64,000 nt of DNA from Burkholderiales bacterium (GTDB lineage: Bacteria; Pseudomonadota; Gammaproteobacteria; Burkholderiales; Burkholderiaceae_C): the NCBI GenBank assembly GCA_016191525.1, contig JACPOK010000038.1:100973-164972 (forward strand). Direction: 5' to 3'. Under the pieces are notes generated by a model. It was given only the letters and a program-made list of their open reading frames with translations. It was not told where the DNA came from and did not search any database. Shown here one piece after another: positions 8,427 through 58,196 of this stretch. Positions within the stretch are counted from its first letter, which is position 1; every line of letters starts with the position of its first letter. The position numbers and the translations under genes are program-made.

Positions 8427-9358
8427 TGTCATCCGTTTCCGCCGCCCAGGTCAAGGCCGTCCGGGGCTTCAACCGGTTCTACACACAGCGCATCGGCGTG
8501 CTCGACCCCTACCTGGGCAGCGAGCTTTCACTGACCGAGGTGCGGGTGATGTACGAGCTGGCCCACCGCAAGGACTCCACCGCCACGCAGCTGGGGCGCG
8601 AGCTCGCGCTGGACGCCGGCTACCTGAGCCGCATCCTGCGGCGCTTCCAGGGCCAGGGCTGGCTGGCGCGCGCACCCTCGCCCGCCGACGCCCGGCAAAG
8701 CCTGCTGACGCTGACCGCCGCCGGGCATGCGGCGTTCGCGCCGTTGCAGCAGAAGTCGCGCGACGAGACCGCTGAACTGCTGGCAGCCCTGCCAGCGGCC
8801 GCGCGCGGCAGGCTGATTGAAGCCATGGGGACGCTGCAGCGGCTGCTGGACCCGCAAGGCGCGCCGCCCCAGCGGCAGACCGTGGTCCTGCGCGACCCGC
8901 GGCCGGGCGACATGGGCTGGGTGGTCCAGCAGCATGGCGACATCTATGCCCGCGAATACGGCTGGAACATGGAGTTCGAGGGCCTGGTGGCCGATGTGGC
9001 GGCCGGCTTTGTCAAGAACTTCCAGCCGCAATGGGAGCGCTGCTGGATCGCCGAGGTGGATGGCGAACGCGCCGGCTCGGTCTTCGTGGTGCGCAAGAGC
9101 GCCACGGTGGCCCAGCTGCGCCTCCTGATCCTCACGCCGCAGGCGCGCGGCCACGGGCTGGGTGCCCGCCTCACCGACGAATGCATCGCGTTCGCGCGCG
9201 GCAAGGGCTACCGCAAGATGGTGCTGTGGACCAACAGCAACCTGCTGGCGGCGCGCGCCATCTATGCCAGGCGGGGATTCACGCTGGTGAAAAGCGATGC
9301 GTACAAGAGTTACGGCGGCCACGCGCTGGTCGGAGAGACCTGGGAGTTGAAGCTCTGA
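8426..9358 (+). CDS. Bifunctional MarR-family HTH regulator / GNAT acetyltransferase
   Basis: N-terminal wHTH (LTEVRVMYELAH, LDAGYLSRILRRF, DARQSLLTLT); C-terminal GNAT (RGHGLGARL, LWTNSNLLAARAIY). Start could be 8417 or 8426. Confidence 0.88.
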   Translation: MSSVSAAQVKAVRGFNRFYTQRIGVLDPYLGSELSLTEVRVMYELAHRKDSTATQLGRELALDAGYLSRILRRFQGQGWLARAPSPADARQSLLTLTAAGHAAFAPLQQKSRDETAELLAALPAAARGRLIEAMGTLQRLLDPQGAPPQRQTVVLRDPRPGDMGWVVQQHGDIYAREYGWNMEFEGLVADVAAGFVKNFQPQWERCWIAEVDGERAGSVFVVRKSATVAQLRLLILTPQARGHGLGARLTDECIAFARGKGYRKMVLWTNSNLLAARAIYARRGFTLVKSDAYKSYGGHALVGETWELKL

Positions 9359-10257
9359 ACCTCGCCTTGCTGGCAGCAGCCGCCACCGGAGTGCAGGTGG
9401 GCGCAGCCATCGTGGCGTCGCGGTTCGCCGTGGCGGAAGTGCCGCCGCTGACGCTGGCGATGCTGCGTTATGCCATCGGGTTTGCCTGCCTCCTGCCCTT
9501 CGTTTGGGAGGGAAAAAGGCCTGTAGGGCGCACCCAGCATGCGTGGGCGGCTACAAAATCGATAGCACCCGACCTTTTCGCCATGGCCGCGCTGGGCATC
9601 GGCCAGTTCGGCATCCTGATCGCGTTGCTCAATTTCGGGCTGCAGCGCGTGGGTTCCGCCCAGGCCGCGCTGATCTTCAGCCTCTTTCCCCTGCTCACGC
9701 TGATGCTGTCGGCCGCCCTCGGCCGCGAGCGGGTAACGGCGGCGCTGGTGTTTGGCGTGCTGCTTTCCGTGGCGGGCATCGCCGTGTCGCTGTCGGCGCG
9801 GCTGCAGGGCACGGGCGACTGGTGGGGCGAAGCGGCCGTCGCCGCTGCCGCCTGCACCGGCGCGGTTTGCAGCGTGCTGTACCGCCCCTACCTGCAGCGC
9901 TACCCCACCCTTGCGGTCTCGGCCTTCGCGATGCTGGCCTCGGTGCTGTTCCTGGCCGTGCTGGCGCTTGGGGAGGCCTGGCCCACGCGCGTCAGTTCTT
10001 TCAGCGCGCAGGCCTGGGCTGCGACAGGTTTCATCGGCGTGTCCAGCGGCATCGGCTACTACTGGTGGCTCTATGCGCTCAAGCACGAATCGCCGACGCG
10101 GGTCACGGTGTTCCTCTCGCTCAACCCCGTGACGGCGGCGCTGCTCGGCTGGGCCTTCCTGGGCGAAGCGCTGCGCCTGGAAGTGCTGGCCGCGCTGGTG
10201 CTGATTGCCGGGGGCTTGTGGTTAGCCACACGGCCCGCGCCACCCTCGCGCCGATAA
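9355..10257 (+). CDS. DMT/EamA family transporter
   Basis: Two EamA repeats with about 10 hydrophobic segments. There is no in-frame ATG near the start; a CTG at 9355 overlaps the upstream TGA. Confidence 0.82.
   Translation: MNLALLAAAATGVQVGAAIVASRFAVAEVPPLTLAMLRYAIGFACLLPFVWEGKRPVGRTQHAWAATKSIAPDLFAMAALGIGQFGILIALLNFGLQRVGSAQAALIFSLFPLLTLMLSAALGRERVTAALVFGVLLSVAGIAVSLSARLQGTGDWWGEAAVAAAACTGAVCSVLYRPYLQRYPTLAVSAFAMLASVLFLAVLALGEAWPTRVSSFSAQAWAATGFIGVSSGIGYYWWLYALKHESPTRVTVFLSLNPVTAALLGWAFLGEALRLEVLAALVLIAGGLWLATRPAPPSRR
9512..9567 (+). repeat. Dispersed ~56-bp repeat, copy A (in frame inside the DMT gene)
   Basis: GAAAAAGGCCTGTAGGGCGCACCCAGCATGCGTGGGCGGCTACAAAATCGATAGCA. Hand count 36/56 ungapped identity to copy E and 32/47 to the core of copy D. 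Confidence 0.8.
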
Positions 10258-24756: not shown

Positions 24757-27274
<2,518 letters not shown>

Positions 27275-32828: not shown

Positions 32829-34004
32829 TTATTCAGGCACGAAGCCGTAGATGCCGCCGCCGTGCGTTACGACCACCAGGGTGTTGCCCGCCAGGACAGG
32901 GGCGGCGGCCACGGCCGTGCCGTCGGTCGTGAGGCGCGTGAGCGGCGTTCCATCGGTGCGGGACAGCAGGTGCACCAGGCCCGCGCTGTCACCCACCACC
33001 ACGGAGCGGCCCACCACCAGCGGGCCGGTCAGGCCGCGGTACAGCAGGCGGTCGCTGGTCCAGGCGCGCTCACCGGCGTCGCGCTTCCAGGCGACGACCT
33101 TGCCGTCGCTCTCGGTGCCGTAAACCATCTGCTCATCGCCATGCACGCCTTCGGCGCCATTGGCCGGCTTGGACCACAGCACGGTGCCGCGCGCCGCGTC
33201 CACACAGCCCACGCTGGCCTGGAAGGCGCGTGCGCAAACCGTATTGCCGACCCGGCTGGTGCGGCCCACCAGGTCCACCAGACGCTCGATATCGTTGGTG
33301 CCGCGGGGCGTTGCGATGGCAGCTTCCCAGCGGACGCTGCCATTGATCGGGTTCAGGCCCACCATGCGCCCACCCAGGCCGGTGACCAGGGTGTCGCCCA
33401 CCGCCAGCATCACGCCGGACTGGCGCAGCACCAGCGGCTCGCCGGGGCGCTGCTGGGTCCACAGCTTGCGGCCGCTCTGGCCGTCGAAAGCGCTGACCGA
33501 GCGGTCCGCCGCCAGCACAAAGACACGGCCTCCCGCCACGAAAGGCGCGGTGTAGCCCTGGGCCACCAGCTTCTGGCGCCAGGCCTGCTTGCCGCCGCTG
33601 AAGGCCACGACTTCGTTGCCGCGCGTGATGACCGCGGTGAGGTTGCCATCGCTGCCAACGCCGGCCGCGATCGGCCCGCCCGCACTGGCGCGCCACAACT
33701 CACGCCCGGTCGCGCCGTCGATCGCAACCACCGAGCCATCGCTGCTGGCCACGGCCACCGTGTTGCCACTGACGTTCACGGCCAGGGGAAAGCCGACTTC
33801 GCCGACGCGTGCCGTCCATGCCGGGCGCACGGCGATGAGGGCCGCGTTGGGTGCCAGTTCGGCCGGCTTGGGCTTTTCCACGGAACTGCTGCCGCCCAGC
33901 CAGGACGGCATCATGGAACAGCCGGAAATCGCGAGTGCTACAAAAACAGGAGCTGCGTAAGCAATACCGGTGCGGGTTGCAGCCGTTTTCTTCTCGTAAA
34001 TCAT
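32829..34004 (-). CDS. bamB: Outer membrane protein assembly lipoprotein BamB
   Basis: Lipobox LAISGC, PQQ-like propeller repeats, RGTNDIERLVD; yfgM-bamB-der synteny. Confidence 0.92.
   Translation of the reverse strand: MIYEKKTAATRTGIAYAAPVFVALAISGCSMMPSWLGGSSSVEKPKPAELAPNAALIAVRPAWTARVGEVGFPLAVNVSGNTVAVASSDGSVVAIDGATGRELWRASAGGPIAAGVGSDGNLTAVITRGNEVVAFSGGKQAWRQKLVAQGYTAPFVAGGRVFVLAADRSVSAFDGQSGRKLWTQQRPGEPLVLRQSGVMLAVGDTLVTGLGGRMVGLNPINGSVRWEAAIATPRGTNDIERLVDLVGRTSRVGNTVCARAFQASVGCVDAARGTVLWSKPANGAEGVHGDEQMVYGTESDGKVVAWKRDAGERAWTSDRLLYRGLTGPLVVGRSVVVGDSAGLVHLLSRTDGTPLTRLTTDGTAVAAAPVLAGNTLVVVTHGGGIYGFVPE
33936..33990 (-). repeat. ~56-bp repeat, copy B (encodes most of the BamB signal peptide)
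   Basis: Reverse complement GAAAACGGCTGCAACCCGCACCGGTATTGCTTACGCAGCTCCTGTTTTTGTAGCA; 40/55 ungapped identity to copy D. Confidence 0.8.
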
Positions 34005-34696
34005 GGTTTGGACCCTGCGGGAGCGGTGGTGGCCGAGGGGGCCGGCGTGAGCGACTTGGGATCCACGCCCAGCGCGGTCAGCTTGACTTCAACCAGCCGG
34101 CGGTATTCCGCCCGCTCGTCCAGGCCCTGGTAGGCCCTGGTGTATTCGGCCTTGGCCTCGTTCTTCTTGCCCTGCAGGCTGTAGATGTCGCCCCTGCGGT
34201 CGGCCACCATCGCCTCGAATTCCTTGGGGAACGATGCGCCCAGCTGCTTGAGCGCTTCGTCGTAGGCCTTCGCGTCGGCCAGCACGCCGGCCAGCCGCAG
34301 CCGGGCCACGGCCTGGTAGCCCTCATCGGAGGCCTTGTCGGCCACCCAGGCCAGTGCCGCCTTGGCAGCGTCGGTGTTGCCCTTCTCGGCGAAGGACTTG
34401 GCGGCCAGCATGCCGGCCTGCTGCGCGTACGTGGTGCCGCCGAACTTGTCCTTCATGTCGGCAAAGGACCGCTCCACGCGGGCGGCGTCGCCGCTGGTGA
34501 CGGCGCGCTCCACTTCGTCGTACATCGCGGCGGCCTGCACGGCCTGCGTGCGCTGCCAGTAATTCCAGCCGTTCCAGGCGGCGATCGAGCCGAATACGGC
34601 GATCAGCAGCCAGGTGATGGCATTGCCGTAGGTGTTCCAGAAGTGCTTGATCTCCGCAAGCTGCTCCTGCTCTTCAAGGTCGAGGTGTTTTGCCAT
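34001..34696 (-). CDS. yfgM: YfgM-family TPR membrane chaperone
   Basis: DLEEQEQL..IKHFW..YG, TM segment, TPR-like repeats, DRRGD. Confidence 0.88.
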   Translation of the reverse strand: MAKHLDLEEQEQLAEIKHFWNTYGNAITWLLIAVFGSIAAWNGWNYWQRTQAVQAAAMYDEVERAVTSGDAARVERSFADMKDKFGGTTYAQQAGMLAAKSFAEKGNTDAAKAALAWVADKASDEGYQAVARLRLAGVLADAKAYDEALKQLGASFPKEFEAMVADRRGDIYSLQGKKNEAKAEYTRAYQGLDERAEYRRLVEVKLTALGVDPKSLTPAPSATTAPAGSKP

Positions 34697-51131: not shown

Positions 51132-52388
51132 TCAGATGTCAAAGAGAAGGCGCGACGGATCTTCCAGCGCTTCCTTCATCGCCACCAGGCCCAGCACGGC
51201 TTCGCGGCCGTCGATGATGCGGTGGTCGTAGCTCATGGCCAGGTAGTTCATCGGCCGCACCACCACCTGCCCGTTCTCCACGACGGCGCGGTCCTTGGTG
51301 GCGTGCACGCCCAGGATGGCCGATTGCGGCGGATTGATGATGGGGGTGGACAGCATCGAGCCGAACACGCCGCCGTTGGAAATGGAAAAGGTGCCGCCGG
51401 TCATCTCTTCGATGCCCAGCTTTCCGTCGCGCGCCTTGGCGCCGTACTCGGCGATCTTCTTCTCGATGTCGGCGAAGCTCATCTGGTCGGCATTGCGCAG
51501 GATGGGCACCACCAGGCCGCGCGGGGAGCCCACGGCGATGCCGATGTCGAAGTAGCCGTGGTAGACGATGTCGTTGCCGTCGACCGATGCGTTGATCACC
51601 GGGTATTTCTTCAGCGCATGAACCGCCGCCTTCACGAAGAAGCTCATGAAGCCGATCTTCACGCCGTGCTCCTTCTCGAACTTCTCCTGGAAGCGCTTGC
51701 GCATTTCCATCACCGGAGCCATGTTCACTTCGTTGAACGTGGTGAGGATGGCGTTGCTCGACTGCGACTGCAGCAGGCGCTCGGCCACGCGGGCCCGCAG
51801 TCGGCTCATGGGCACGCGCTGTTCGGGCCGCTGCCCCAGGTCCGGCGCCGCCACGGACGCGTTCACCTGGGGGAGGAAAGCGGCTGCAGGGCGCGCCGGC
51901 TGTGCTTGGGCAGCTACAGATTTAGGAGCAGACGCAGCGCCGAGCACGTCCGCCTTGAGCACGCGGCCGTCCTTGCCGGTGCCCGGCACGGAGCCGGCGG
52001 CCAGGTTGTTGTCGGCCATCAGCTTGGCGGCTGCCGGCATCGCGATGCCGGCCTTGCTGCCCACCGAAGCGGCGGCTGCCGGCGCCGCCGCAGCGGCGGG
52101 CACGGCAGCTGCTGCGGCCGGGGCCGGGGCCACCGCCACGCTCTTGCCGTCGGTATCGATCTTCGCGATCAGCTGCTCGGCGGCCACCGTGCTGCCGTCG
52201 GCCTGCACGATTTCGGCCAACACGCCGGCTGCGGGCGCGGGCACTTCCAGCACCACCTTGTCGGTCTCGATCTCGATCAGGATCTCATCCATCGCCACGG
52301 CGTCGCCGGGCTTCTTTTTCCACTGCAGCAGGGTTGCCTCGGCAACCGATTCGGACAGCTGCGGGACTTTGACTTCTACGATAGCCAT
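51132..52388 (-). CDS. sucB: 2-oxoglutarate dehydrogenase E2 (dihydrolipoyl succinyltransferase)
   Basis: Lipoyl domain ETDKV, E3-binding domain [17 protein letters not shown]. Confidence 0.96.
51876..51930 (+). repeat. ~56-bp repeat, copy D (antisense, in frame in the SucB linker)
   Basis: GAAAGCGGCTGCAGGGCGCGCCGGCTGTGCTTGGGCAGCTACAGATTTAGGAGCA; read on the minus strand as [18 protein letters not shown]. Confidence 0.82.
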
Positions 52389-55276: not shown

Positions 55277-55311
55277 GCTGTTCGCTGACTTTCCGTCTCC
55301 CTGCAGGAGAC

Positions 55312-55378
55312 ATTGGCTGGTTCAAGAAACCTCCCGCGACACGGCTGGACCGGATGGCGGATGCGACTGTGGCTGGAA
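55312..55378 (-). ncRNA. Probable sucA RNA motif (cis-regulatory leader)
   Basis: Minus strand ...GTCGCATCCGCCATCCGGTCCAGCCGTGTCGCGGGAGGTTTCTTGAACCAGC lies just 5' of sucA. It matches my recollection of the Burkholderiales sucA motif core (CCG..CGGTCAAGCCGTGTCGCGGAAGGTT..AACC). Not checked with Infernal. Confidence 0.7.
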
Positions 55379-55424: not shown

Positions 55425-56270
55425 TCAGCGCGGGATGGCTGGCGCCTGGCGCGCACCGCTGTTGTATTCGCGGCTTTCCTCATTCGATTTGCGCTGCCAC
55501 GCTTCGCGCATCTTCGTCACGGCTTCACGATCGGACATGGTGCTGCCCGTGGGCGGCGCCACATCTGCCGGGGGAGTAAATTCGATGCCGAACTGCCGCT
55601 TCATCGAGAGGTTGCAGGCCAGGTGGTCGCCGGCGGACGGCTGCGACCGCTTGCGTATGCTTTCGTCGCGCAGGTAGCTCATCACCGAATCGGCCTGCTC
55701 ATGGGTGTGCGGCAGCCCCAACACGTGGCCCATCTCGTGCACCACCACCGAGGGCAGGTCGGTCATGCGCGGGTTCAGCTCGATGCCGGTTTGCAGGCTG
55801 CCGGTGCCTGCGATCCCGCCGCCGTTGGCGCTTGCCTTCAGGTAATCCAGCCGCCAGCGGATGCTGACGCGCTCGGGCCTGCCGTCGGCCTGATACGGCG
55901 CCCGCCCGCCATAGCTCAGGTCCACCTTGCAGCCGTCCATCCAGGCTTGCATGGCCCGGCGGATCGCCGCCTCGACGGTGGCGGCAGGATGCTCGGCCGG
56001 CTCGTTGCCGGGGTCGTAATACAGCGTGAAGGCCGCGCGCACTTCCGGCTTGTACAGGCTGGCGGGCCGGGACGCCGCAGCCGCCGGTGCTGCCAGCCTG
56101 GGCAATTTGACCAGCGCTTCCCGGTCGTTGCCGCCCGATTCATTGCAAGGCGCATCCTTGTACGCCGTGCGCCCACCAGCGCCGGTGCAGCGGTAGACGG
56201 TGGGTTGCGCCTGGGCGGCCGCAGCACAGGCCAGCAAGCCCGCCAGTGCGCAGGCCGCTCTCATTTTCAT
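55425..56270 (-). CDS. Secreted DUF4124-like + matrixin/metzincin zinc metalloprotease
   Basis: Signal peptide, YRCTGAGGRTAYKDAPC, HEMGHVLGLPH plus Met-turn SVMSY. Start 56270 or 56291. Confidence 0.78.
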   Translation of the reverse strand: MKMRAACALAGLLACAAAAQAQPTVYRCTGAGGRTAYKDAPCNESGGNDREALVKLPRLAAPAAAASRPASLYKPEVRAAFTLYYDPGNEPAEHPAATVEAAIRRAMQAWMDGCKVDLSYGGRAPYQADGRPERVSIRWRLDYLKASANGGGIAGTGSLQTGIELNPRMTDLPSVVVHEMGHVLGLPHTHEQADSVMSYLRDESIRKRSQPSAGDHLACNLSMKRQFGIEFTPPADVAPPTGSTMSDREAVTKMREAWQRKSNEESREYNSGARQAPAIPR

Positions 56271-56311
56271 AGCCGCATAAGCATGTCCCATGCGGTCTGC
56301 AGCCTACTTTC
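56256..56311 (-). repeat. ~56-bp repeat, copy F (spans the prpE stop and the protease start)
   Basis: Reverse complement GAAAGTAGGCTGCAGACCGCATGGGACATGCTTATGCGGCTATGAAAATGAGAGCG; 26/35 identity to copy B over the core. Confidence 0.72.
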
Positions 56312-58196
56312 CCAATGAATCCGTGATCGCCCGCAGCGCGGCGGGGTCTTCGATGGTGGTCAGGTCGCCCGCGTCCCGGCCTTCGCACACCGCCTGGATT
56401 GCGCGCCGCAACAGCTTGCCGCTGCGCGTCTTGGGCAGCAGGCCGACGAAGTGCACGCGTGAGGGCCGGGCCACCGCGCCGAGCTGCTCGTCCACCACCT
56501 TCATGATCTCGCCTTCGAGCTTCATGCGGGCCGCCTCATCGCCCAGCGCGGCCGCATCGCGCGCGACCACGAAGGCCATCGCCACCTGGCCCTTGAGCGC
56601 GTCGGCCACGCCGACCACCGCCACCTCGGCCACGTTGCGGTGGCTGGAGATGCTCTCTTCGATCTCGCGCGTGCCCAGCCGGTGGCCGGCCACGTTGATC
56701 ACGTCGTCGGTGCGGCCCAGGATGTAGTAGTAGCCGTCCTGTTCGCGGATGCCCCAGTCGAAGGTGCTGTAGACCATCCTGCCGGGAATGCTCTGCCAGT
56801 AGGTCTTGACGAAGCGCGCGTCGTCGCCCCAGATGGTCTGCATGAAGCCCGGCGGCGTGGGTCCCTCGATGACGACGACGCCCTTCTCGCCCGGCTGCGT
56901 CAACTCCTCTCCCGTGCCCTCATGGACGATCTTCACCTTGAACCCGTACATGGGCACGCCGGGGCTGCCGAACTTGCTGGCCTTCTTCTCCACGCCGTTG
57001 GCCACGGTCAGGATGGGCCAGCCGCTCTCGGTCTGCCAGTAGTTGTCGATGATGGGCACGCCCAGCGCTTCGCTGATCCAGCGGCCGGTGGGTTCATCGA
57101 GCGGCTCGCCCGCCAGGTACAGCGCCTTCAGGCTGGACAGGTCGTACTTCTTCAGGAACGCCGGGTCCTGCTTCCTGAGCACGCGCACCGCCGTGGGCGC
57201 GCTGAACATCGCCTTGACCTTGTACTTCTCCACCAGGCTCCACCAGATGCCCGCGTCGGGCCGGACCGGCAGCCCCTCGTACATGATGGTGGCCATGCCC
57301 GCGATCAGCGGGCCGTAGACGATGTAGCTGTGGCCCACCACCCAGCCGATGTCGCTGGTGGAGAAATAGGTTTCTCCCGCCTCGCACTCGAAGATGTGCT
57401 TCATGCTGGCCGCCAGCGCCACCGCGTAGCCGCCGACGTCGCGCTGCACGCCCTTGGGCCGCCCGGTGGTGCCGCTGGTGTAGATGGTGTAGCTGATGTC
57501 GGTGGCGTCCAGCCACTCGCAGGGCACGCTGGTCCCGGCATGCTTATGCGACAGGGCCTCCCACGAATGGTCGCGGCCTTCCTGCATGGTGAAGGCCGCG
57601 AGGCCCCGGTCCACCATGATCACGGCTTGCGGCTTGTGGCTGGACAGGCGGATCGCCTCGTCCAGCAGCGGCTTGTATTCCACCACTTTCCCGCCGCGCG
57701 AGCCGGCATCGGCGCTGACGATGAGCCGGGGCGACGCGTCCTCGATGCGGGAGGCCAGCGCCATGGAAGCAAAACCGCCGAACACCACGGAGTGCACGGC
57801 GCCGATGCGGGCGCAGGCCAGCATCATGAAAGCGGCCTCGGCGATCATCGGCATGTAGATCAACACCCGGTCGCCCTTGTTCACGCCCAGGCCGAGCAGC
57901 ATGGCGGCGGCACGCTGCACCTGCTCGTGAAGCTCACGGAAGCTGTAGGTCTTTTCAGTGCCGGTTTCCGTGGAGACGTAGATCAGCGCCGGCTGCTCCG
58001 CGCGGTCCTTGAGGTGACGGTCGACCGCGTTGTGGCACAGGTTGGTGGTGCCGCCCACAAACCAGCGGGTGAATGGGGGGTTGGTGTTGTCGCAGATCGT
58101 TTGCGGCGGCGCCTGCCAGGCTATCAGTTGCGCCTGCTCGGCCCAGAAAGCCTCGGGCTCGGCCAGCGAACGCTGGTAGAAGTCGTCGTAATTCAT
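56304..58196 (-). CDS. prpE: Propionate--CoA ligase
   Basis: YTSGTTGRPKG, SDIGWVVGHSY, DNYWQTE, GRTDDVINVAGHR, KTRSGK. Confidence 0.9.
   Translation of the reverse strand: MNYDDFYQRSLAEPEAFWAEQAQLIAWQAPPQTICDNTNPPFTRWFVGGTTNLCHNAVDRHLKDRAEQPALIYVSTETGTEKTYSFRELHEQVQRAAAMLLGLGVNKGDRVLIYMPMIAEAAFMMLACARIGAVHSVVFGGFASMALASRIEDASPRLIVSADAGSRGGKVVEYKPLLDEAIRLSSHKPQAVIMVDRGLAAFTMQEGRDHSWEALSHKHAGTSVPCEWLDATDISYTIYTSGTTGRPKGVQRDVGGYAVALAASMKHIFECEAGETYFSTSDIGWVVGHSYIVYGPLIAGMATIMYEGLPVRPDAGIWWSLVEKYKVKAMFSAPTAVRVLRKQDPAFLKKYDLSSLKALYLAGEPLDEPTGRWISEALGVPIIDNYWQTESGWPILTVANGVEKKASKFGSPGVPMYGFKVKIVHEGTGEELTQPGEKGVVVIEGPTPPGFMQTIWGDDARFVKTYWQSIPGRMVYSTFDWGIREQDGYYYILGRTDDVINVAGHRLGTREIEESISSHRNVAEVAVVGVADALKGQVAMAFVVARDAAALGDEAARMKLEGEIMKVVDEQLGAVARPSRVHFVGLLPKTRSGKLLRRAIQAVCEGRDAGDLTTIEDPAALRAITDSLGK

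Follow-up and report, generated by a model that had tools for sequence, protein, structure and literature searches.

A copy of a REP-like interspersed repeat encodes much of the BamB signal peptide in a Ramlibacter genome

The stretch of DNA analysed here, referred to as the window, spans 64,000 nt of a 5.0-Mb Ramlibacter genome (GCA_016191525.1, contig JACPOK010000038.1, positions 100,973 to 164,972) and carries the genes hisS, yfgM-like, bamB and der, an order that is the same in relatives. The bamB coding sequence (32829..34004, minus strand) encodes a protein of 391 aa that scores 333.9 bits against the curated equivalog model TIGR03300, above the cut-off of 285.2 bits that establishes its identity. 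The YfgM-like gene upstream (34001..34696, minus strand; TPR_21) was called as an open reading frame; a search of NCBIfam gave no match for the copy in this genome, and homologues in the same position carry PF09976. The two genes overlap in an ATGA read directly from the sequence (34001..34004, minus strand), where the bamB start meets the stop of the upstream gene, and they are probably translationally coupled. Beyond the in-frame stop, translation can first begin at the ATG at 34004, and no ATG, GTG or TTG occurs in frame either upstream of it or between it and the lipobox residue Cys29. Almost all of the approximately 110–113 Ramlibacter congeners with bamB keep this junction, as ccATGA or tcATGA, and because it is conserved almost everywhere in the congeners, the bamB start is taken to be ancestral.

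The first 29 codons of bamB (33918..34004, minus strand) encode a lipoprotein signal peptide, MIYEKKTAATRTGIAYAAPVFVALAISGC, assigned from hydropathy, charge and a PROSITE PS51257-type rule. Its lipobox, I26-S27-G28-C29 (33918..33929, minus strand; read from the sequence), closes the hydrophobic region and fits the pattern [LVI][ASTVI][GAS]C, and all congeners have a homologous lipobox of the form L-[AGS]-G-C. Set beside 216 BamB signals from Ramlibacter, the signal is physicochemically typical of the genus: hydropathy over the best 10 aa reaches 2.51 (median 2.50), the n-region carries a charge of +2 (genus median 2), and the length is 29 aa (range 17–42, median 24). In our own implementation of the rule, which requires a Cys at positions 15–35, a K or R in the first seven residues and no charge in the six positions before the lipobox context, the signal passes, as do 190 of the 216. 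The serine at +2 fits sorting to the outer membrane by the E. coli rule.

Immediately 3′ of the start codon lies a copy of an interspersed repeat, here called copy B, which is read antisense as codons 2–23 of bamB (33936..33999, plus strand in the orientation of the nhmmer model) and ends outside the lipobox. A nucleotide profile built from three seeds found it at 33936–33999 with 41 bits (E 4.6e-10; envelope 33927–34010), and a profile of 83 copies raised this to a gapless match of 48.1 bits (E 1.9e-12), rank 154 of 311 in the genome. It retains 16 of the 17 invariant columns of the family and matches the consensus at 42 of 68 positions, against a codon-shuffled null of 18 ± 3.7. The GC content at its third codon positions is 0.45, compared with 0.8–1.0 in the signal-peptide codons of most congeners. 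The hairpins of the family have been lost in copy B (folding z +0.1 to +0.7), so that it is recognised by its sequence alone. On these results its membership of the repeat family is confirmed. Detection required a local short-word blastn search and nhmmer against the whole genome, in which several loci matched both ends of the segment at equal spacing; a repeat search restricted to the window returned chance matches alone, its top inverted pair being inspected and dismissed, and yielded no partner for copy B. An assembly artefact was also considered and is argued against by the same architecture in the independent metagenome assemblies L031 and L032.

An earlier, sequence-only reading had assigned residues from about K5 to A23 (33936–33990) to a repeat. 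Those coordinates lie inside copy B and the end at A23 holds, while the start had been set too far in: the copy reaches about 9 nt closer to the start codon, beginning at codon 2 or 3, which adds Y3 and E4. Its further proposal, that the repeat gives the basic n-region together with the greater part of the hydrophobic region, is borne out by K5, K6, R11 and I14–A23. The repeat-encoded core stretch IAYAAPVFVA accounts for ten residues of a hydrophobic core of roughly thirteen, with LAISG-C29 alone following it.

The family itself is abundant. The first profile, made from three loci found by blastn, recovered 202 copies in the genome, and the 83-copy profile recovered 311 copies of a unit of approximately 65 nt. 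The consensus, GGTTGCTATAAATTTGATAGCTGCCCACGCACAGCTGGTGCGCTCTGCAGGCCTTTTTCCCTCTGAAAA, contains three hairpins of 5 bp, whose folding signal is weak (z −1.6), and the 17 invariant columns read GCT..TAGC..GC..GCG..C.G.C..TT. Within these, TAGC is invariant and is preceded by A in the consensus (GATAGC) and by G in a minority of copies. Searches of Rfam found no family resembling the repeat, and the consensus flanks showed no obvious terminal inverted repeats of the kind that mark a MITE. Qualitatively, the best-scoring copies are intergenic or sit at 3′ ends, and weaker copies are genic; the classifier behind the genome-wide count of 109 internal copies is crude, as a random control placed 47% internally.

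In the reading frame used by bamB, 126 of 226 gapless copies are open and read approximately SEGKRPAARASCAWAAIKSIA, a basic segment followed by an Ala-rich hydrophobic one. When open copies were placed in the bamB context, 24 of 125 (19%) satisfied all three simple signal criteria, so the repeat appears partly pre-adapted to this role, with the bamB copy among the better variants. At this pass rate, a lucky variant or later adaptation must be assumed for bamB.

In-frame copies occur in open reading frames of unrelated function, including bamB, hisZ, a DMT transporter and lolA. Within the window, copy A (9494..9575, minus strand, 59.4 bits) lies in frame in a DMT/EamA transporter (ORF 9031–10257, plus strand), where it supplies EGKRPVGRTQHAWAATKSIA to an interhelical loop; in congeners that do not hold the family, an unrelated loop of 12–23 aa occupies the same place, which indicates little or no net lengthening. 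Copy E (26541..26608, plus strand, 37.8 bits) is inside hisZ. Copy D (51875..51939, minus strand, 46.9 bits) falls inside a long open reading frame by a crude test, in what the sequence-only reading took for a SucB linker, and copy F (56246..56327, plus strand, 34.6 bits) is at a gene junction and overlaps the 3′ end of an ORF. A sucA RNA motif (RF01070, 71.5 bits; 55283–55366, minus strand) is found near copy F.

A Y1 transposase was considered as a tracker of the family. The genome encodes one RAYT-like Y1 transposase (PF01797, 231 aa, C8:211298-211990) with no repeat copy within 5 kb, the nearest being approximately 7 kb away. Of 118 Ramlibacter species, 111 have this gene as a single copy and 5 have the family, and the candidate was rejected on this ground; the pattern expected of a RAYT-type partner, a gene flanked by copies and co-distributed with them, was not seen.

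The distribution of the family in the genus is narrow. A covariance model detected it in 5 of 118 species (G000, G119, G129, G118 and a single match in G103) and did not detect it in 16 genomes of other families. Among the 113 species representatives with bamB, four hold the family and three of these four have the bamB copy (G000; G129, 25.5 bits; G118, 14 bits), as opposed to none of the 109 representatives that do not hold the family (Fisher p 1.7e-5). Across all relatives taken together, an in-register bamB copy is present in at least ten other Ramlibacter lineages, where it scores 55 bits in L118 and L119, 54 in L120, 27.8 in L121, 25.5 in L048, 20 in L031, 18 in L125, 14 in L035, 12.7 in L123 and 11 in L124; the match in L032 is below significance (6.5 bits, E 0.86). 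Register, orientation and boundaries are the same in the copy-bearing relatives, where the ATGA junction is followed by the repeat from TTTCAGAGG to GTAGCAAC and then by CTGGCCGGCTGC, giving the layout ATGA, repeat, CTGGCNGGCTGC and a signal of 28–29 aa. These signals match the repeat consensus at 33–50 of 68 positions (codon-shuffled null 18 ± 3.7) and have a third-position GC of 0.39–0.64, against 0.8–1.0 elsewhere. In addition, a protein profile made from translated genomic copies matches the copy-bearing N-termini with E values down to 3e-10.

The 28-codon signals of L003, L036, L045, L052, L059 and L080 were examined as possible decayed copies and proved indistinguishable from the codon-shuffled null. 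With 20–25 of 68 consensus matches, other 28-codon signals stay within that null, and the codon-for-codon alignment with signals of other species that would have spoken against a repeat origin was not found. Some congeners carry other sequence at this site. The bamB leader of L075 (G042:C37:261766-261827) contains, in frame, an inverted pair of an unrelated hairpin repeat, ATTCCCGCGAAGGCGGGAATC, within a 42-aa signal that reads …VIPAKAGIQ…WIPAFAGMT…; this repeat has about 20 copies in G042 and 21 in the genome studied here. BamB signals of 34–40 aa in L013/L058 and in L015/L017/L073/L074 (MNDKNNDAS…; MILTSRKSGPSGPSG…) may contain further inserted sequences.

Another reading is that the repeat is not translated as a signal, because the start of bamB lies elsewhere or the gene is decaying in this genome. 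In its favour, Di Nocera et al. 2013 (PMC3733652) caution that REPs which appear at predicted NH2 termini are in many cases artefacts of annotation. The sole start is nevertheless at 34004, upstream of the repeat and in a conserved ATGA junction; no other start precedes the lipobox, and the full 391-aa ORF scores above the BamB cut-off. The frame has also stayed open through the repeat in more than ten lineages despite divergence at a neutral rate, and the lipobox is conserved. We give an untranslated repeat next to no credence.

The history of the bamB copy was followed on a tree of 214 mature BamB sequences, a single-protein tree whose deep nodes are poorly resolved. P0004, the clade that joins this genome (L001) with L031 and L032, P0005 and P0006 branch at or near the base of one clade, and species with a 20-aa signal, such as MSRLASRGAALVLAAALGGC in one congener, are nested within it (support 97–99). 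Codon by codon, L123 (MISLANRP, GVLIRRGC and then SAIVFVAMLTGC) aligns with L034 (MIALAQRA and then AALVLIATLGGC) around an eight-codon gap that takes the place of GVLIRRGC, and most differences between the two are third-position changes from A/T to G/C. From this alignment and these third-position changes, the ordinary 20-aa signal of the sister clade appears, most simply, to be a 24-nt deletion derivative of the repeat-encoded one. The searched genomes of the 20-aa clade (G002, G021, G023 and G071) did not contain the family, and no empty site was found among relatives.

Divergence between L001 and L031/L032 in the repeat-derived codons is 0.36 at first and second positions, equal to the third-position divergence of the mature part (0.36–0.39) and sixfold higher than its first- and second-position divergence (0.06). 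Judging from these rates, the repeat-derived segment evolves at about the neutral rate and is likely under generic constraint only. An ancient copy decaying at such a rate would be expected to have become unrecognisable. The copies in L118 and L120, which lie in a different deep clade from L001, are nonetheless still recognisable at 50 of 68 consensus positions and belong to another subfamily (CAGCCGTTTT in L001, CAGGCCTTTTT in L118). A near-neutral rate together with recognisable copies of a second subfamily suggests repeated hits on this site or renewal of the copy there.

The same data can be set against a single ancient capture near the base of the genus, followed by vertical inheritance, with the differences in freshness due to uneven decay. 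Such a history would account for the identical boundaries, orientation, frame and 28–29-aa signal in all copy-bearing lineages, for the sequence CCCGC that all bamB copies have where the consensus has AGCGC, and for the basal or near-basal position of copy-bearing lineages in several clades. It sits poorly with near-neutral decay, since L118 and L120 score 54–55 bits with their 50 of 68 matches, above many genomic copies; these two fall in the other deep clade from L001 and differ from it in their subfamily variants, and 113 of 118 species do not have the family. We consider a single capture unlikely and favour repeated hits or renewals at the bamB site.

BamB is not the only protein concerned. 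At least ten other exported proteins have a signal n- or h-region encoded by copies of the family, in either orientation and with E values from 3e-18 to 2e-7: a TupA-like binding protein (repeat at C30:918355-918438), an M16 peptidase, a TonB-dependent receptor (C30:315874-315953), an SCO1-like lipoprotein (C37:168424-168487), a TPM-domain protein, a BepA-like protease, a secretin (C17:34206-34265), LolA (C35:301704-301762), a YcnI-like protein and a DsbD-like protein. LolA is identified by TIGR00547 (227 bits); apart from LolA, the TupA-like protein and BamB, the names are our own reading of the sequences. None of the repeat-encoded leaders is unusually long.

With so many copies in signal peptides, and with a consensus whose reading in the bamB frame, SEGKRPAARASCAWAAIKSIA, itself resembles a signal peptide, the direction of descent could be reversed, the family having been born from signal-coding sequence in bamB or a similar gene and bamB being the source. 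Most of the evidence points the other way. The invariant hairpin and tag positions (GCT..TAGC, GC, GCG) are typical of REP-like DNA, intergenic regions and 3′ ends harbour the best copies, and signals are encoded in both orientations. The bamB copy is below average in consensus similarity (154 of 311) and is low in third-position GC, which sets it apart from congeners' native signals. Neither its ATGA nor its lipobox flank recurs at genomic copies, and G119 goes part of the way to showing the family in a genome whose bamB signal is unrelated. An origin of the family in signal-coding sequence is thus very improbable, and the repeat is treated below as the donor and the signal as the recipient.

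How a copy can enter a gene is best seen in hisZ (26117–27274, minus strand), whose length is identical in eight congeners that do not hold the family. The stretch occupied by copy E matches the consensus at 52 of 69 positions, compared with 27–34 of 69 in the equal-length congeners. Per congener there are 21–30 differences, of which 18–25 are towards the repeat consensus and 0–2 away from it (p 6e-8 to 4e-5), and the encoded peptide is almost unchanged despite the repeat copy. In this comparison of sequences, the copy looks like a templated overwrite that replaced the native sequence at equal length, not an insertion. The added residues that would mark an RPE-like element were not found in HisZ, the bamB signal or the DMT loop.

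By extension, the bamB signal may have been overwritten repeatedly and in register wherever the family is active, by a conversion-like process or template switching with no change in length. The equal-length replacement in hisZ with its directional differences is consistent with this, as are the unlengthened repeat-encoded signals and DMT loop, the restriction of the bamB copy to genomes that hold the family, and the differences among copies in freshness and subfamily. On the other side, signals in genomes that lack the family have no significant prior similarity that could guide conversion (20–25 of 68, where the null is 18 ± 3.7), conversion between such dissimilar sequences has no known mechanism, vertical descent with neutral decay fits the L001/L031/L032 clade, and the signature is rigorous at one locus, hisZ. 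Repeated overwriting of bamB is accordingly a reading that we hold tentatively. The broader proposal is equally provisional, namely that within genes the family may spread by equal-length, in-register overwriting through ectopic conversion or template switching, with BamB and at least ten other signals being rewritten repeatedly where the family is active and decaying to ordinary signals where it has been lost. Were it true, some of the normal signal peptides and loops of these bacteria would have their ancestry in repeat DNA.

We consider it probable that the BamB signal is repeat-encoded from the conserved ATG, that it replaced an older signal, that the protein follows the Sec/Lol lipoprotein route and that the site was hit more than once. 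Translation of bamB would begin at the conserved ATG that overlaps the yfgM-like stop, and codons 2–23, an antisense-read copy of a REP-like hairpin element, would give the n-region (net +2) and the core; the last residues, (L)AISG-C29 with the lipobox, would be the sole older gene sequence of the leader. Export, lipidation and cleavage are predicted from established lipoprotein biogenesis (Sec/Lgt/LspA/Lnt/Lol). In this scheme Sec would export the precursor, Lgt would lipidate Cys29, and LspA would cut before Cys29 and so discard the repeat-encoded peptide, after which the mature lipoprotein, with Ser at +2, would pass to the outer membrane via Lol. Because the repeat-derived part would be removed, generic signal properties would suffice, which would explain the near-neutral rate. 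The copy would have replaced an earlier signal and not been added to one, because the signal, at 29 aa against a genus median of 24, is not lengthened. It would already have been in place in the ancestor that this species shares with its closest metagenomic relatives; the sister clade would then have lost eight codons and drifted to high GC, which left the ordinary-looking 20-aa signal, and in other lineages that carry the family in-register copies of differing freshness would reflect repeated hits or renewals at the site. The sequence-only reading had offered the repeat as an export signal exapted on a core outer-membrane assembly factor. That idea is supported and is amended here, in that an older signal was probably replaced, the genome has at least 11 such signals with that of BamB among them, other Ramlibacter lineages show the same arrangement, and export itself is predicted.

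No part of an exported protein evolves faster than its signal peptide, and where such a peptide came from can seldom be traced. In this case a source can be given, a repeat family, and the stages are visible in one genus, from fresh copies through neutrally decaying copies to what appears to be an ordinary-looking deletion derivative. The case suggests a route for non-coding selfish DNA into an essential gene part, on core envelope machinery that includes BamB, LolA, a secretin and a TonB-dependent receptor. It also carries a warning for annotation, that start codons should not by default be shifted downstream of REPs. If equal-length overwriting of the hisZ type proved general, it would be an undescribed way for interspersed repeats to rewrite coding sequence.

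Palindromic repeats lying in frame inside genes are established. Intragenic REPs with GTAG/CGTC tags have been described, including copies at NH2 termini, the latter being probably untranslated (Di Nocera, De Gregorio & Rocco 2013, PMC3733652). With REPs and REPINs (PMC3733652; Bertels & Rainey 2011, PMC3116915) the present family appears to share short, high-copy, hairpin-forming units, best copies that are intergenic or at 3′ ends, some in-frame ORF copies including NH2 termini, and a (G/A)TAGC tag beside an imperfect palindrome. It differs from them in that the tag is mostly ATAG instead of GTAG, the stems are 5 bp and no copy flanks a Y1-transposase gene; unlike the REPs described in 2013, the signal peptide here requires translation of the repeat, and the proteins are not lengthened. 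Rickettsia RPEs, of 105–150 bp, add a peptide segment (Ogata et al. 2000, reviewed in PMC3184786 and PMC10969869). Both they and the present family are selfish-looking palindromic repeats found in frame in unrelated genes and tolerated at permissive parts of proteins, but here the unit is approximately 65 nt, lies in a cleaved leader and, in hisZ, appears as an equal-length replacement; the literature searched contained no paper linking RPEs to signal peptides. Neisseria REP2 (reviewed in PMC3184786) likewise contributes the translation-start end of genes, whereas bamB has an ancestral start codon and upstream coupling, and what the repeat contributes there is the n- and h-regions. Neither repeat-encoded signal peptides nor equal-length overwriting were described in the literature searched. 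Relative to these systems, what would be new is the recurrence of the repeat in one register across a genus, its traceable decay to an ordinary signal, the number of signals affected and the equal-length overwriting.
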